DNA of 63,366 nucleotides, filler included, from Atractiella rhizophila (Eukaryota): assembly GCA_021432655.1 (NCBI GenBank). It is 2 parts of 2 records of this genome, joined end to end, with 100 filler letters (N's around TTAATTAATTAA, not from the genome) between each part and the next. Parts side by side here need not be neighbours in the genome. Positions count along the whole stretch, not along the records: positions 1 to 31,649 come from MU271692.1; 1 more part is not named here. One strand, written 5' to 3'. Position numbers and translations under genes: made by a program. This document shows positions 8,478 to 18,000 of the stretch, in pieces (the stretch's first letter is position 1; the number at the start of each line of letters is the position of its first letter). Under the pieces are notes generated by a model. It made no database searches. It was not told the origin of the DNA and saw only the letters and a list, made by a program, of their open reading frames with translations.

Positions 8478-10760
8478 TGCTCGTTGGATTGCGTTTTCGT
8501 TGGTGCTGACGGTACCATAGATTACCTGAACCTGGGAAGAAGAACACGCTCATCACTTCCGCTATACCCTATGTAAACAATGTCCCTCATCTGGGCAACA
8601 TCATTGGCTCCGTTTTGAGCGTGAGTGTGGCAATACAATGCGTTCAAAGAAAGCTAACTGATGGCGACAGGCTGACATCTATGCCCGTTTTTCTCGTACC
8701 CTTAATAGACCTACCCTCTACATTTGTGGAACAGACGAATACGGAACTGCAACAGAAGTCAGAGCGATACAAGATAATGTCACACCTTTAGAGTTGTGCA
8801 ACAAATATCATGCACTCCATCGACAAATCTACGAATGGTTCGAACTATCTTTTGACCATTTCGGACGGACAACGACGGAGGAGCACACTATGTTTGTCTT
8901 CTTTTCTCTCTCTCTGTTGCTCCTTAAACGGACGGGGTTGATGTTCGCCTTTGGACAGGGTGAATCAGAACGCTATCAAAAAGCTTTACGAAAACAACTA
9001 CCTCTATCCCCTCAAACAAGAACAACTGTACTGTCCCAGCTGCTCTCGCTTTCTAGCTGATCGATACGTCACGGGTACCTGTCCGAATACTGCCTGTAAC
9101 TACGAAGATGCGCGAGGCGATCAATGCGACAAGTGCGGACGGACACATTCTCCCCTTGAGCTGATCAAGCCAAAATGTACCATCTGCGGCTCTCAGCCTG
9201 AGACTCGAGAAACTGAGAACCTTTACTTGAAGTTGGGAGAGCTTAGCGGAAGGGTAGCAGACCACGCGAGGGAGATGGCTGGTGTGAAGTTGGAGGATGA
9301 GGGTGGAGTGGAGGGGGAAGAGGAGAAAGAAGTGGAAGGAGAGGAGAAGGAGGCTGTGGTTGGAGAGGAGGGAAAAGGAGTTTGGAGCATTCAAGCGAAG
9401 AGGATCACGAAGAGTTGGCTCAAGATGGGCTTGCTCGATATGTGCGTGACGAGGGATCTAAAGTGGGGAGTGCCCGTGCCTATGGAACAATGGAAAGACA
9501 AGGTGGCGTATGTCTGGTTTGGTGCGTTGATTGGTCGCTCTCCTTCCTCGTAGTTACATGCTGAATAAAAATGGTCATCAGATGCTCCATTTGGATATCC
9601 AAGCATTACGGCAAGCTATACGAAGGAGTGGGAAAAGTGGTGGAGGAATCCAGACGAGGTTCGCCTCGTGCAGTTCATGGGCAAAGATAACGGTTTGTGC
9701 CGAGGGGTACACGCTTGTGTTTGGTATCTAACTTTGTCGGCACAGTTCGATTTCACACTGTTCTGTGGCCTGCTGCCCTCTTCGGGACGGGAGAGAAATG
9801 GACTATGCTCGACTCCATCTCCGTAACGGATTACTTAAACTAGTTCGTCTTTTCTCATTCAAAAATGCCGCAATATTTATTTCTTCGTGTGAATACAGTG
9901 AGGGAACCAAATTCTCAAAGTCTCGAAATGTTGGCGTTTTCGGAGATGCCGTCGCGAAGACTGGCCTACCATCATCCGTCTGGCGTTACACTCTCATTTC
10001 TAACCGCCCCGAGTCCGGTGACTCCCAATTCTCGTGGTCAGACATGGTCCTCAAGTCGAACGGAGAGCTGTTGAACAACATAGGCAATCTTGTAAATCGA
10101 GTGATGAAGTTCGCCAACTCCAAATTCGACTCCGTCATAGGTCCTACCGAGGATGATCTGGAGAAGGGAGTAGAGGCGTTGACAAACGAGATGGACAAGG
10201 AGCTTGTGAGGGATGTGGAGAAGTTGCTTGGAGAATATCAGCGATATATGGAGGCATTCAAATTTCGGCAAGGTCTCAAGATGTTCCTTGAGATCTCCGG
10301 ACGCGCAAATCAATATCTGCAGGACAACAAGTTGGACAACAATCTCTTTGCCAATCAGCCAAAACGGTGTTCTCAAGTCCTTCTCCTCGTTTTCAACGTC
10401 ATCTACCATCTCTCAGCTGTTCTCAATCCCTTCATGCCTTCGACTGAAGCTTCCATCCTTCGTCAGCTCAATGCTCCTCCTCGTATCCTTTCTGACAAAT
10501 TTACAATCGACATTTTGCCTGGACACAAACTCAATAAGGCCGAATATCTATTCAAGAAGATAGAGGAGAAGAATATAGAGATCTGGAGGAGCCAGTTTGG
10601 TGGTGGTTCGCAAACGAACCCAGAAGAGGAGGAAAAGAAGAGAAAGAAGGAGGAAAGGAAGCGGAAGAAGGAGGAGAAAAAGGCACTGGCTCCAAAAGAG
10701 GATCAAGTGACTCTGGTCCAGAAGAATGTTAAAGAGAATGAGGTGGAAGTCGTTGCTTGA
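8389..10760 (+). CDS. MES1: Cytosolic methionyl-tRNA synthetase
   Basis: [20 protein letters not shown] (HIGH-type motif), CGTDEYGT, zinc knuckle [41 protein letters not shown]. Confidence 0.97.
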
Positions 10761-11007: not shown

Positions 11008-11456
11008 ATGGGGGCATTATGTGGTAAAGAAAGTCATTTCAAAGGTCCGTTCTCCCCATTTGTCTTTAAGTCTTGCGGAGATTCATTGTTTCACAGGAGA
11101 AGGGCAGACGCTCGGCGGTCCACCATCTTCGTCTTCTAAACCTCAGTCTTATGGTGCCACAAGCAACGTGCTCGGTTCTTCTTCTTCCAAGCCACCTGGC
11201 GCCTCTTCAGCTGGGGCACATGCAGATGAGAGAGCAGCTCGAGCAGCTGCAGCTGAAGCTCGGGTGAAAGCAGCTCAGAGCAAGGGCATTCAGGGCACTG
11301 GTGGACAGTTGGCTAAGAAAACAGATAGCCAAGCGCGGGATGGAGGAAGGAAGGAGGAAGCATTGAGGGTTGGCGCAGAAGGGCGGCAGGAAGACCTACG
11401 GGTACGTACTCTCGTCACGAAAGAATGGTCATTGAGGAGTCGCATAGTGGGATTAA
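11008..11456 (+). CDS. SVIP-like small acylated p97/Cdc48-interacting protein
   Basis: Spliced MGALCGKESHFK|GEGQTLGG...ERAARAAAAEARVKAAQSKGI...LR|WD*. N-terminal MGxxC acylation motif and VIM-like RxxxxxAAxxR. Confidence 0.7.
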
Positions 11457-11688
11457 TTCAAATGGCCTCCGTCACCATTGAATTTCATTGTCTTGGGCCC
11501 TTGCTTGAGTCGATATCAGAGTTATCTATCTTGTTGCCGTAATTACATTGTATTTCTATTCTGTTCAAGCGACATGCGTCCCAGGATAGCCACGCCTGCG
11601 CCAACCTTCATGCAGAGCCATTGTATCCTGAAGCATAGGAGAAGCAGAGTGTTGCAATGTCTCGGATCGTGGATTCCTCCCACGCCTT

Positions 11689-13873
11689 TTATGAGATCCA
11701 TTCCACTGAACATATTTCCTCGAATTCTTTCTCCTGTTCCACTCTCACCAAAGGCACCGTAGCCCAATAACTAAGCGCTGCCTGTCGCTGCATTCCCTTC
11801 TCCCTCCTCTCTTCCTCCTGCACTCCATCCCAAGAGAGATCCATAAGAGTTTGAGGAGGTAGAATTGCCTCAAATAAGAGGGAGAGAAGTGCCGTCTGCT
11901 CGCCGTAACCTGTTTGGAGGGTGGAGACTGTGTCGACTGTCATGGAGCGATGAGCTGGAGAATGCTAGAGGTGAGATGAGGGAGAGGCGAAACCAACCGA
12001 AACGTGAGAGAGGCCAAGTCAGCCATGCAGGCTTTGAGAAAGTCCATTCTATGCCTCTCGCCTTCGAGGCATCCATGAGTAGTCGTTCCAAGGCATCCAC
12101 TGTCTGCTCCATTTGTTCAATCATCGATCGCTGACCGCCATCCAGAGTTAGCTATTTAGCGAGGAAGGCGCGAAGCTGGTTAAGGGAATATTGACCAGTT
12201 GTGCCATCGTGTTTTGTAAGGCAGAGAGCAGGCTGGAGAGCTCTTGAGATTTTTGCAGGATGTAGTCTGTCCGCAGGTTCTCCCTCATAGAAGCGGAAGA
12301 GGTGGTGAGCGAGTCGAGGGAAGCGAGCGCCGAACTGGAACAAACAAATCGTCAAAAGCTTCCTTCCAGGTAAGGCCGAAATGCGAGTGCCTTTTTTTAA
12401 CCTCTTCAGTTTCATGAGAGAGAAGGTCACAATTCGTCCCTTCAATCAGGGAACAGTTAAATGGTTTGCAGTTTTAAAATAAATGGGTTTTCGAAAACAA
12501 ACTGTATTTTTTGTCTCCCTCTTCAGGAAACCAATCTCGGACTCCTTTCTTAGGACATTTATCTTCCTTGCGGAAAAAGATTACGAAATTGAGGTCTGGA
12601 AATAAGTCGCAATTCAGTTGGAACGGAAACTGACTGAACGGTACTGAATCGCCTGTCCCGTGGCTGTGGAGGCATGTCCCGGTGAAGTGAACAAGTTAAA
12701 GAGTTAAAAGAGAGGTTAACAATGGCTCCCGCTATCTAAGCCTCCTGCCATCACGGTAAAAGAAAATTCAACACCGTAAATCATAGCTTACACCTTCGGC
12801 AGTTCTCACTGACCAGCATACGTCGTCTTGCCCATAAAGACCGCGTAGCAAATAAAAATCGCAGATGACACTCCTCCACAGAATCTCCCGTCACATCCTC
12901 ATACTACACGGCCTGGGGAACGTAGCACAAGGCCTCTACGCTATCCTCTACCCCTCCTCCTGGGCACTCAAGGCCGGACCTGGTTTCGCGACTGCGAGCT
13001 CCCAGGCGGTCCAAAGCATTGGTTAGTCAACACGCATCCTTTGTTGGTCCTGCACAGCTACTCATTAAATCCTTTCTGCGTTTCGATGTTCAATAATACG
13101 ACATTTCGATTCTCAACGATCGAAGCACTGGGATGCCTTGGTGTGGGAATTTATAGTTTCTTTGGCGCTTTGACCGGGGATAGAAGGTTCTTTATTATCA
13201 CTTGTGGACTCAGAACTGTTTTTGCGATTGTGGTCGCCTTGAATTGGGGAAAAGAAAATACAGGAGTAGTGGCTTATGAGAGCGTGGTGGCTGTTATCGC
13301 TGCCAGCGCCGCTTTGTTATGACGCTGGATCATGTAGTGACTTTTATGTAGAGTTCAGCGATGTGGACGATCTATGCGAGCGCTAGGAAAGTAATGTCCA
13401 GATATTGTTTCACACAATCAATTCTGTGTCATCATTCTCAGAGAGGAGATAACATCAAGTGAGGAGAGTGCGAGTGGCACTTCAAGGAAAAAATTTTTGG
13501 TACGACGGTAGAGAACAGCAAACGCTAGCGATTTCAAAGAAGCAAACGCTAGCTGAATGCACAAGGCGAATAAATCTCACCTCGTCTCATCCGCTATCTC
13601 CACGATCTTCCTCGCATTTCCCAATCCCTCTACTCCAAGGACGAGGGCAATCCATCCCTTCCTAATCTTCCTATGATCTGCCAATAAATTTTTCAGCTTC
13701 TTGTGATATGGCGTCTCTGCCACCGTTCCAATTGACTGCGATGGTCCTAGTTTCGAGGGAGTCTTTGAAGTGGTCCCGGTCGGAGATTCCGGTGGTGCTG
13801 AGCTGCCTCGTTTGGTAGGCGTGGTTGGAGGGGTGTTGAGGGAGTAGCGCGGTTTGGCAGAAGGTCGTGGCAT
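11689..13873 (-). CDS. Hypothetical protein; intron 1 (12335-13580) hosts a nested gene
   Basis: Exon 1 ends ..EIADET-AG|gtgaga at 13580 and joins ttccag|T-TCG at 12334 in phase. This gives ..ETSSALASLD..MAQL|RSMIEQMEQ..WLTWPLSRF|VDTV..VEWIS*. Confidence 0.8.
12865..13322 (+). CDS. Small ~4-TM membrane protein nested antisense in an intron
   Basis: MTLLHRISRHILILHGLGNVAQGLYAILYP..AVQSI|ALGCLGVGIYSFFG..AASAALL*. One intron (13022-13125), in phase. Four hydrophobic segments. Confidence 0.8.
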
Positions 13874-14307
13874 GATGAGAAGACTCGATTCTGGGCACAG
13901 GGTAGAGTAGATTGGCTGAAATATGCGGGATCAAGCTTCCAGATTTAGCGATGTAGCAATCCGACTGATGGTTCCTTTCGATGCCCACAGTCAACCACTA
14001 CTTGAGACCGTCTGGACAAGGTCACGTGTCTAGGCGCGACCTTTGTAATAGAGAGGCTCAAACAAAAGGAAAGGAATTGAGCCCTATTCTTGTTATCATC
14101 ACATTACTCATATCCTTTGCAGTCTCGCAGACCAGAGAGGCCTATTCCCTTCTTACTTCACAAACTCCCCGTTAATTGCTTCCGCTAGCTTGCCGCTCCT
14201 GCCGCTCAGTAAGGTTCCCTTTTCGCGCAAATTCGTCGACCATCTCTTAGCATCTCCAAAGCCCCAGCGCTCCAGAGCAGTACAAGGAGCTCGTAGAAAC
14301 TGACACA

Positions 14308-16331
14308 ATGTCACGTTCGACATTCCGCGACTCGCGTTTTATCTCCTTTCTTCCCTTCATGCAGCAGAAGAAGTCTTCGCTTTTGGTAGACGAAGAACGC
14401 GAGGACGAAGTTAACGAGCGCACTGCGTTGTTGGAGGACCAAAAGAAGAAGAATGGGAATGGGAAGAGCACCCCGTTGCCTAAAGGGCAGTTGTTCGTTC
14501 TTTGCGCTATGCGCTTTACGGAGGTATATACCTTTCTCTCCCTTCCCCTCCTCCACTGCCCAAGCTGATTTGGCGTTTTGTGGATGACGGCGGGGTGAAT
14601 AGCCAATCGTTTTCACTTGCATCTTCCCATTCGTCAACCTCATGATTGAGGATCTCGGAATCACCGATGATCCGAAGAAGGTGGGATATTACGCTGGGTT
14701 CATAGTATGTGTTTCAACCTGCATTCTCTGTCTTGCTTTCTGTTGCCGCCGGAGAAGTCCCACCTGTTCAACCTTTTCGTTTCTAAGCTATGCAAACCTG
14801 ACGCTCACGAAACATGACAGGAATCAGTCTTCGCCCTCACCCAATTCCTGACCATCCTTCACTGGGGCCGACTATCCGACATCATAGGCCGGAAGCCCAT
14901 CATGTTAACTGGTCTGGCTGGTGTCACGCTCTCCTCGTTATGTTTCGGACTCTCGACGACCTTCCCTGCCCTTGTCGCAAGTAGAGCGCTAGCTGGAGCC
15001 TTGAATGGAAACATTGCAGTTTTGAAGAGCATCATTGGAGAAATCACCGATAGATCGAATGTCGCTAGGGCTTTCAGCTTTTTGCCTCTTTGTTGGGCTT
15101 TGGGAGTCGTCATCGGGTTCGTTACTGCCTCCTCCCCTTCTCCCATTTGTAGTTGATTGCTCATAATTCGAATGCAGTCCTCTATTAGGTGGTTTTCTCA
15201 GCCGGCCAGCCACTAGGTATCCGAATATATTTGGCCGGTTCGAGTTCCTGCATCATTATCCCTACTTTCTACCAACGGCAGCGGCGGCGGTCTTTCCTGC
15301 TATCTCTTTCGTTCTCGGATTCCTCTTTCTCAAAGAGGTTCGTATACCCTCCCAATCTCTCCTTCCCGAGGCATTTCTTCGCATTCATTGATCATGGCTT
15401 CACTGCGCAGACCCTCCCATCCAAAGTGGCTCGATCAAAAGCTGTCGCGGAAGGAGAACCGGTGAAGAAAGTAGAGAGAGCACCGTTGAAGGATTTATGG
15501 AGCAAGAAGATAGTCGCGCTCCTCATCAATTATGGACTCCTCGCTCTCGAGACTATATCACTCGATGCACTCATCACCCTCTTTTGTTATACCCGAGTCG
15601 AGCTTGGAGGATTAGGCATGGATGAGTCTAGCATAGGGTCCGTCGTCATCCTTCACTGTTTAGTTGAGTAGTTTGCTGAGTGATGGGAATAGGAAAGCGC
15701 TCAGCTACGCTGGATTCCTCAGTATCCTTGTTCAACTCTTCATCTTCCCTCCGCTGCAGAAGAGGATCGGTACGGTGGCCCTTTACAGGAGCATGATGGC
15801 TCTTTATCCCATCGTATTTGCCCTCTTCCCTCTATCTAACGTTTTCGCACGAAAGGGAGATATGAAGTCTGCACAAGGAGTATTGTGGACTATACTTACC
15901 ATTAAGGTTATCGCCAACATGGTCTATGGTTTGTTTCCCTCCACCCTTCAGTGTCTCATAGCTCTCGTTGCTAACTGAAACTATCCGGATCGACTATAGC
16001 CTGTAACATGATTCTCGTCAACGCTGCCGCTCCATCTCCATCTCTTTTAGGGACAATGAATGGTATAGCCCAATCGGTGGCGAGCGGCATGCGAGCCTTG
16101 GGACCGGCAGCGTCAACCTCACTTTTTGCACTGAGCGTACAAAAGAATGTGATGGACGGAAAGCTCGTCTGGGTCGTCTTTTCTACCATCGCCGCTGGCG
16201 CGTTCGGGACCAGCTGGTTACTGCATGATGAGAGGACGGATGACGAAAAGAAGGATGAGGAGAGGGAGGAGAACGAGAGGAGGAGGGCAGCTATGGAGGG
16301 GTTGGAGGAGGAGGAGGACGTAATTGCTTGA
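14308..16331 (+). CDS. Major facilitator superfamily transporter (YCR023C/ZIFL-like)
   Basis: TPLPKGQL, KVGYYAGFI, WGRLSDIIGRKP (MFS motif A), LNGNIAV, LGTMNGIAQ. Many TM segments. Confidence 0.9.
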
Positions 16332-16453: not shown

Positions 16454-18000
16454 TTACAGAATGTCCTGACAGAAAGTACCCCACTTCAACACCATTGACC
16501 GGACCCAAAGTTCATAGTCGCCCTTCGTGGCTTTGAATAACTCCTTATGTTCCCTTTTACAATCTTTACACTCTCCCCTGACCTGCTCAGCCCTTCCCGC
16601 CATCTCAATGAGACAAAGACGCTCCCAACGCTTGTGATTCCTGCCACCTTCGGACGATACCTGCTGAGCGCCAGCGATCCGTGTCCCATGCACACCGCCA
16701 GACAAAGGGTAGAAGTCGCGAAGAACGAGCTGGCGAGATGGACATTGTGCTCGCCATTGAGAGAGGCGTGCAACGGGATGGAGGGAACGTCCGAGCTTTA
16801 TATACGTCGTGCTTGAAGCCGAGGAAGAGGAGGAGGCGGGGAGGAGCTCGTAGACATAGATGTGCCCTGCAATATCCCTATGTTCAAGAAGAAAAGTTAG
16901 ATCACGATAAAAATACTGCGACTACAGACTTTGGATTCCGGTCTTTCCCCACTTCAAGCCGGAGCATCAATCGAGTTTCCTCAGGCAGAGATTCATCTAT
17001 CCAGTCCTTAAACTCGATCCATTTTCCATTCACAAATGTGCCTTTCTCCCCAAGAACCTTAATTGTCATCAGTCTCGAGTTTAAAGTAAAGGGGGATGGG
17101 ACAAACCTGTTTCGAATGCTGAAAACAGAACCGTCGAACTCCGTACTCTTCTGCATCGTCTGCAATACTTAACTCTGACAAGCGCAAAACCTCATCCAGA
17201 GCGTCCAGATCCGTCTGTGTAATACCTGACGATGTATTCTGTACCATCCTTGTGCACCGCTTCCCTGTCGATGTCGTTCCAGAGCACTGAACACCATCCT
17301 TCCCTGCACTCAATGACGATGGGGTGGGAGAAGGAGAAGGATCCCGCTTCTTCCGCTTGGGCGTGATTGCAGTGTCAGAGACTGAATGTGCGTGATTGGA
17401 GGTGTTGATGACAGGATGAAGGTGTGTAGCAGTTGAAGACGATGTGGGAGGGACAGGAGCTGGAGGTGAGGAGTAAGTGCGTTGATGATATGGCTTTCGT
17501 GGAGGTGGCGGTAGGGAAGCCCCGACGGAAGACGATAAAGGAGGATGCGAAGGATGCGAAGGCTGCTGAGGGGTGACCACAGGACGTGGAGGTCGAATCC
17601 CAGCAATCCCATCGGACGGAAAGCTCGCAGGAATAGACGCTGTAGGGATCCAGGGTTCTGGCATTCTCAGCCTGTCGTCCCGCTCAGGCTCAACTTCCAC
17701 ATTGAACACTGGTGGGGTCGGGAGCACAGCGACTCCAGGAGCGTGCCACGGTTTAGCGTAGAGGAGTGGTGGCTTGCCGCCATTCCCAACTGTGGAGATG
17801 CTTCGAGGTTTTGGAGGCGACGGAGGCGGCGGTCGTCCCGTCAATGGAAGCTCTGTGGCACTCACTGAAGCTTGCACACCTCCACCTGTGCGGCGGATTC
17901 CCAGTGCCGGATCTGGTAAAGGTCGTGGTCCCCAACCTATCCCTCCATCGTCAGAATCTGGGATACACAAGTTGCAGAGGTAGCGAAAAGATTGTCCCAT
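16454..18000 (-). CDS. T5orf172/DUF1766 (GIY-YIG-like) domain protein
   Basis: QCSGTTSTGKRCTR..RFCFQH Cys/His motif; GHIYVYEL..YIKLGRS..RLSQWRAQC; RWERLCLIE..CKDCKREHKELF. Confidence 0.75.

Follow-up and report, generated by a model that had tools for sequence, protein, structure and literature searches.

Opposite-strand pairs of a host gene and a gene nested in one of its introns are described in reports on mammals (PMC11694760) and C. elegans (PMC12274878), and two further reports deal with interference in such pairs (PMC3192792, PMC13309782). In fungi, genes nested in this way are called rare in one report (PMC4363200), and another gives nested examples from Candida albicans, including an intron-hosted small nucleolar RNA (snoRNA) (PMC2926782). 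A narrow literature search yielded no work on nested pairs of protein-coding genes in basidiomycetes. Here, we describe a locus in a 63,366-nt stretch of DNA from the root fungus Atractiella rhizophila (the whole stretch is called the window; 48.8% G+C overall), in which a two-exon gene on the plus strand (the nested gene, or guest) lies within the 1,246-nt first intron of a four-exon gene on the minus strand (the host).

The nested pair is genuine and its arrangement is of an already known kind. As in the animal pairs, a complete coding gene sits in one intron on the opposite strand, both genes are spliced and the guest has, presumably in this case, its own promoter. The differences are that the organism is a fungus, that the other introns of the locus measure 61-104 nt, that the host intron consists of the guest and its flanks only and that the locus is known here from sequence and contigs. 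The ascomycete protein XP_064655493.1, which typifies the small fungal four-helix membrane proteins, resembles the guest in matching both exons in order (48% identity for exon 1 and 40% for exon 2), in length (118 vs 117 aa) and in its four long helices, and differs in coming from the Ascomycota, as opposed to the Pucciniomycotina for the window.

We consider it very probable that this locus is a true opposite-strand nested gene pair of the nuclear genome, with a guest that is old and vertically inherited, not recently inserted. The host is transcribed leftwards and its first intron is spliced out in one piece. That intron houses a whole rightward gene unit, made up of about 410 nt of upstream DNA, the two-exon gene and about 250 nt of downstream DNA. 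The nested gene would be an old resident fungal gene by vertical descent, with no recent insertion or horizontal transfer. Because host transcription would run antisense over the promoter and body of the guest, mutual interference of host and guest expression is predicted and seems likely. The features were placed by means of a deposited protein (P0001) and the contigs of three sequencing runs (X1, X2 and X3), which were compared over 11400-14100. None of the runs is on record as RNA. The kind of X3 is recorded as '?' under 'organism B', and X1 and X2 are listed under 'organism A', RNA being the tool's guess for them, with contigs 95-99% like the window. The features are as follows, with positions along the window.

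13581..13873, minus strand: host exon 1, coding part (ATG at 13873; 97 codons and 2 bases; residues 1-97 of P0001)
12335..13580, minus strand: host intron 1, 1,246 nt, GT..AG (X3 contig joint 12334>13581; splice sites read from the sequence)
12196..12334, minus strand: host exon 2 (P0001; X3 record 11 spans 12196-12334 and is joined on both sides)
12131..12195, minus strand: host intron 2, 65 nt, GT..AG (X3 joint 12130>12196)
11998..12130, minus strand: host exon 3 (P0001; X3 contigs over 12013-12125)
11937..11997, minus strand: host intron 3, 61 nt, GT..AG (X3 joint 11936>11998)
11689..11936, minus strand: host exon 4, coding part including the stop codon (P0001; X3 contigs over 11683-11883)
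12335..12748, plus strand: presumed promoter or upstream region of the nested gene, 42.8% G+C (inferred; 3' part of the host intron)
12749..13329, plus strand: nested transcript, minimum extent (X1 record 2, 12749-13020 joined to 13125-13329; X2 records 4 and 5)
12865..13021, plus strand: nested exon 1, coding part (first ATG of the contig; 52 codons and 1 base; homologue matches)
13022..13125, plus strand: nested intron, 104 nt, GT..AG, phase 1 (absent from one X1 contig and one X2 contig)
13126..13322, plus strand: nested exon 2, coding part (stop codon at 13320-13322; phmmer homologues)

A preliminary description of this DNA had proposed that the host, from 13873 to 11689, is continuous through the donor at 13580 and the acceptor at 12335, with matching phases. 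This was borne out by the four joined exons (13873-13581, 12334-12196, 12130-11998 and 11936-11689), which form an open frame of 270 codons. Exon 1 ends in phase 2, and the third base comes from the acceptor side. By eye, the frame agrees with P0001, a deposited protein of 270 aa (hypothetical protein BT69DRAFT_1324780 [Atractiella rhizophila]), and the translation of 13873-13580 on the minus strand was 100% identical to the N-terminus of P0001 over 99% of its length. The deposited model is the same as the one proposed, the 1,246-nt first intron included.

The ends of host intron 1 are GTGAGA...CCAG, with TTGAC, a YTRAY-like branch motif, approximately 18 nt before the AG. All three host joints (11936>11998, 12130>12196 and 12334>13581) were present in X3 as GT..AG on the minus strand. 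At the longest of them, 1,246 bases are skipped (CT..AC on the plus strand, which is GT..AG on the minus). This joint was found in one X3 contig, with 59 letters on its shorter side and a depth of 21.7, which falls within the range of the other X3 contigs listed (13.4-61.1). Joint 12130>12196 was seen at an equal depth, and X3 record 11 (233 letters, one difference in 139) bears the 65-nt and the 1,246-nt joints together. The joint of 13581 to 12334, chosen beforehand as the check on the host model, was thus present in a spliced contig, not missing, and P0001 uses the same joint, so the splice spans the guest and takes out the whole intron at once. Over 11400-14100, X3 contigs were confined to exons of the host and to sequence upstream of its ATG, with zero contigs in 12401-13492. 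Since the three introns are absent at exact GT..AG borders and no contig lies within 12401-13492, yet the sequence is joined across it, we infer that the X3 contigs come from spliced RNA.

The preliminary description had put the length of this intron at about 20 times the local norm. It is 12-20 times as long as the three other introns of the locus (61 and 65 nt for the two in the host, 104 nt for the one in the guest), in agreement with that estimate. A scan of 11400-14100 with Rfam and ARAGORN found no RNA family and no transfer RNA (tRNA), and an intron-borne snoRNA or tRNA was therefore rejected as the cause of the intron length.

The nested coding sequence (12865-13322) and the contigs that cover it (12749-13329) lie wholly inside 12335-13580. 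Joint 13021>13126 was found on GT..AG both in X1, which covers 12749-13329, and in X2, which covers 12754-13303; the contigs of the nested transcript start at 12749 and 12754, respectively. Because these X1 and X2 contigs lack the 104-nt intron, it is truly removed by splicing in a close relative. From its GT..AG ends and open frame, the transcript is placed on the strand opposite the host. The product is 117 aa long and has four hydrophobic stretches at approximately 8-28 (weak), 45-66, 72-90 and 96-117. With an ATG at 12865, a spliced intron and these four stretches, the complete plus-strand gene of two exons predicted at 12865-13322, for a four-transmembrane protein of about 117 aa, was confirmed. 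The AT-rich upstream region predicted along with it was confirmed in part: 12335-12748 does have a lower G+C content than the window (42.8% vs 48.8%), but its AT-richness is only mild.

Variants between the contigs and the window were classified at 40 listed places, with 11 further places outside the listing. Among the variants listed, the nested gene had five synonymous third-position changes and four conservative residue changes (T>A, I>V, N>S and T>A), and its frame was intact; two of these nine changes share one codon. Host exon 1 had 12 listed variants in X3 contigs, with nine synonymous third-position and three residue-changing, plus one in-frame deletion of 3 bases. This ratio and the in-frame deletion show that exon 1 is kept as coding in the proposed frame. 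Host exons 2-4 had five synonymous and six residue-changing variants among those listed, including Met114>Val. Upstream of the host ATG, the non-coding segment 13961-14053 had eight substitutions, with seven small insertions listed at 13990-14010.

The two exon halves of the nested gene were used separately as queries in homology searches. Among 1.84 billion representatives, phmmer with exon 2 (65 aa) as query returned 18 proteins at E ≤ 0.001. Three of these were full length (P0002, 137 aa; P0003, 123 aa; P0008, 118 aa) and their C-terminal halves had 40-54% identity to the query, nine were short (57-79 aa) and six were long (291-1,640 aa). The six long matches were excluded from alignments; P0006 and P0019, both long, were unrelated repeat proteins on reading. 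Exon 1 was compared with the homologues by pairwise BLASTP, and it matched residues 1-52 of P0008 (48% identity, 1e-17), residues 1-52 of P0002 (50%, 6e-16) and residues 14-62 of P0003 (47%, 1e-14). Since each exon matches the same three proteins in order, the exons, the start codon and the length all fit one conserved protein. P0008 is XP_064655493.1 from Saxophila tyrrhenica, which UniRef lists as 'DUF4345 domain-containing protein', and the Atlas cluster nearest to it comprises 98 members, from Eukaryota only and mostly Ascomycota. On these comparisons, we infer that the nested gene is old and conserved in fungi, and that its product is a four-helix membrane protein. A word-seeded search with exon 2 against proteins of 54-174 aa in 5.8 billion clusters returned none at E ≤ 0.001, not even the query itself (nine candidates).

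The position of the nested intron is probably common to homologues in other species. P0002 bears a 19-residue insert exactly at the site of the intron in the window, and the nine short homologues begin between 11 residues before and 9 residues after the start of exon 2 (-11 to +9). Both the insert and these starts resemble the output of gene callers around an intron, which argues for the shared position. The deposited annotation appears to lack the nested gene itself, probably because gene-calling pipelines retain a single model for each locus. BLASTP also gave weak second matches, in which nested residues 16-28 (the start of helix 1) matched homologue residues 53-75 (the start of helix 3) with the pattern Gly-Leu-Gly...Gly..Tyr. 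Such matches hint that the four-helix protein may have been born by duplication of a two-helix unit.

The fold of the family was modeled on P0008 (13 aligned sequences), which gave four long helices at a predicted local distance difference test (pLDDT) score of 91.7. Foldseek found nothing in the PDB for this model at E ≤ 0.001. The best matches by an exhaustive structural aligner were the bundles of the tetraspanins CD9 (6k4j, Z 11.8), CD53 (6wvg, Z 11.6) and Tspan15 (8esv, Z 10.8), although a Z below about 13 between helical bundles may reflect merely a common arrangement. The alignments extended over 110-112 residues with a root-mean-square deviation of 3.6-4.0 and 12-15% identity. The likeness to tetraspanins concerns the membrane bundle of the model; the tetraspanins differ in identity, in the Foldseek result and in length (220-440 aa vs 118 aa). 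At half the length of a tetraspanin or less, P0008 has no room for a large extracellular domain.

Family searches gave a similar picture. Neither exon half of the nested protein, scanned separately, matched a Pfam family at E ≤ 1, and the six separate exon pieces of the locus gave only chance-level matches. The closest families are DUF6790 (PF20589) and DUF4345 (PF14248), mostly bacterial four-helix membrane proteins. P0003 reached 27.3 bits with DUF6790, for which the gathering cut-off is 27.1; P0002, P0008 and four short homologues had no match to it. DUF4345 had no match at E ≤ 1 in any of seven homologues, P0008 included, or in the nested halves. There is only a likeness of fold: bacterial clusters that carry the name DUF4345 or PF14248 superpose with the Atlas model of P0008 at a template modeling (TM) score of 0.77-0.81 by query. 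A search of NCBIfam with five homologues found nothing, and the best score of an Atlas search with the exon-2 half (0.88) went to a bacterial cluster that has no family and counts as no more than a lead. The nested protein was therefore filed as a small fungal four-helix membrane protein with a fold like that of DUF4345 and DUF6790, and not as a tested member of either. From size and modeled fold alone, we would guess at a structural or accessory membrane subunit rather than an enzyme.

The host protein is a helical, coiled-coil protein that is lineage-restricted or fast-evolving and has no recognized family. Its model had an overall pLDDT of 52.3, with the first 50 or so residues structureless at low confidence and long helices after them; residues 55-169 were modeled at moderate confidence. 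P0001 itself was all that word-seeded searches returned, whether the query was host exon 1 (against longer proteins) or the complete host, and the best hit of a PDB sequence search with the host protein was noise (E 0.18). CENP-Q (PF13094) was considered for the host protein and rejected, since its 19.2 bits (E 0.0014) fall below the cut-off of 28.5 and it was one of approximately 12-13 weak matches of the coiled-coil type.

The preliminary description had suggested a recent insertion or acquisition, on the strength of an 8-mer that occurs near both ends of the intron and could be a target-site duplication. The two copies are present at the following positions.

12382..12389, plus strand: 8-mer TGCGAGTG, copy 1, chance repeat (window count vs shuffles)
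13469..13476, plus strand: 8-mer TGCGAGTG, copy 2, chance repeat (window count vs shuffles)

The repeat is real but does not behave like a target-site duplication. The window contains TGCGAGTG twice, where 1.89 copies would be expected, and a count of two is reached in 63 of 100 shuffles. The copies sit 47 and 104 nt inside the intron ends, off the boundaries. Repeated 8-mer pairs numbered 16 in the host intron and 12.1 ± 4.5 in shuffles, and an 8-mer common to both 150-nt intron ends was found in 22% of 500 shuffles. A search of the host intron yielded no long repeats at its ends, whether direct or inverted. Its longest inverted pair (24 nt at 75%) is internal, and the sole inverted pair near both intron ends, I6, consists of 10-nt arms, of which one falls within host exon 1. 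No second copy of the intron was found in the 63-kb window. The G+C and third-position G+C contents were 0.523 and 0.542 for the nested coding sequence and 0.522 and 0.554 for the host. Besides the guest, the intron contains flanks of 414 nt upstream (G+C 0.428) and 251 nt downstream (0.422), and nothing else recognizable.

These data bear on how the arrangement arose. If a foreign or mobile cassette had entered a once-short intron and left an 8-bp target-site duplication, the excess length of the intron, one 8-mer copy near each end and the absence of the nested protein from the deposited proteins searched would all be accounted for. However, the 8-mer is at chance level and off the boundaries, no repeat of either orientation longer than 24 nt at 75% was found at the termini, no further copy exists in the 63-kb window and the guest equals the host in G+C at all and at third positions. 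In addition, the guest has a GT..AG intron of its own, which is spliced in a relative and apparently shared in position by homologues, its relatives include an ascomycete protein and a cluster found only in eukaryotes, and the gene is also present in the 95-99% identical relative. A mobile-element or cassette insertion was therefore rejected, and the earlier suggestion of a recent insertion or horizontal acquisition is extremely improbable. Another explanation would dispense with the nest itself: two separate genes, one of 98 codons (13873-13577) and one made up of exons 2-4, would flank the four-helix gene, and the 13581/12334 junction, mistaken by annotators for the principal form, would come from occasional read-through splicing. 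Unspliced exon 1 does meet a stop three bases past the donor, no host homologue shows both halves in one protein and one X1 contig is unspliced through the acceptor. On the other hand, the depth of the junction contig is ordinary for X3, the deposited model uses the junction and a helix at residues 81-106 crosses the joint at 97/98, albeit in a low-confidence model. Exons 2-4 also lack a conserved start: Met114 is the sole in-frame ATG near the start of exon 2 and is Val in an X3 contig, which argues against a separate gene. We regard two separate genes as very unlikely.

It is also conceivable that the guest is older than the nest. The four-helix gene would once have had a transcription unit on either side, or a shorter host as its neighbor, and the host would later have gained a distal first exon and a promoter next to a divergent major facilitator superfamily (MFS) gene, with the result that it now spans the older gene. 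This would fit a nested family that is widespread in fungi inside a host without a detectable relative, an intron made up of the guest and flanks of intergenic size and low G+C, and a host exon 1 that lies about 400 nt from a divergent gene (plus-strand frame from 14251; later frames at 14818-15975 match MFS). But host exon 1 is under coding constraint and is therefore not very young, and the missing host homologues may just reflect a fast-evolving coiled-coil protein and word-seeded searches. Such an extension of the host has some chance of being correct, if a small one, and we lean slightly toward an old arrangement of unknown mechanism over it. A bolder version, in which a young lineage-restricted coiled-coil gene built the nest around the guest by gaining a distal first exon, and the pair now acts as an either/or switch in which the transcription of each partner hinders the other, strikes us as quite unlikely. 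Two hints fit such a switch but are no proof of it. X3, the run with the spliced host, has no contig on the guest, and X1 and X2, the runs with the spliced guest, show the host only as a contig unspliced through the acceptor. These contig blanks (X3 on 12401-13492; X1 and X2 on host exons 1, 3 and 4) carry no expression information.

Several observations weigh against an old and genuine nested pair. All the runs are assembled contigs, which come without strand, true transcript ends or expression levels. Spliced nested RNA was found only in X1 and X2, from the relative with 95-99% identity, and X3 had no contig on the nested gene despite having contigs identical to the window. One X1 contig is unspliced through the host acceptor at 12334/12335 (it covers 12204-12380 and resumes at 12431-12484). 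It lacks 12381-12430, and these 50 nt end GT..AT on the minus strand, which is non-standard. The contig may stem from a strain length difference in an unspliced host transcript, an alternative host start in the intron or carry-over of DNA. No orthologous locus came out of metagenome scans for which nested exon 2 and P0002 served as queries, and the nested halves are without a Pfam family. Finally, the only homologue found for the host is the host itself, so comparison cannot tie its two halves together.

The locus adds a well-supported antisense protein-coding gene in a spliceosomal intron of a compact fungal genome, a setting where one report deems such genes rare (PMC4363200). It has no bearing on any long-standing open question. 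It does point to a practical annotation gap, in that a conserved gene was apparently left out of the deposited proteins, probably through its position inside another gene model, and other fungal introns of outlier length may hide similar genes. The locus of approximately 2.2 kb could also be a simple test system, in which an organism with short introns splices across a 1.2-kb intron with an active opposing promoter.

The genes that flank the locus are ordinary: a methionyl-tRNA synthetase at approximately 8942-10757 and an MFS transporter from approximately 14818, both on the plus strand. A spacer of approximately 400 nt (13874-14250) separates the host ATG (13873, minus strand) from the plus-strand open frame that starts at 14251. 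This frame had no Pfam match of its own; the frames at 14818-15975, which match MFS families, may be part of the same gene. X3 contigs extend upstream of the host ATG to at least 14087, which suggests that the host has a long 5' leader or that two transcripts overlap. Approximately 0.5 kb past the last MFS-matching frame (end at 15975), an open frame on the minus strand (16457-16921) has a T5orf172 / MUG113 (meiotically up-regulated gene 113) domain (E 6.4e-08).

Two minor observations concern the host. Over 11683-14087, several host segments exist in X3 in two forms, of which the first matches the window exactly and the second is approximately 95-97% alike, as in records 7 and 8 over 11765-11883, with many small insertions at 13990-14010 upstream of the ATG. 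These look like two haplotypes or two strains in one sample. Host intron 1 also contains a perfect direct repeat of 13 nt, AGCAAACGCTAGC, with its two copies 24 nt apart (13517-13553) at approximately 30-60 nt from the donor; the repeat overlaps a short palindrome, CGCTAGCG.

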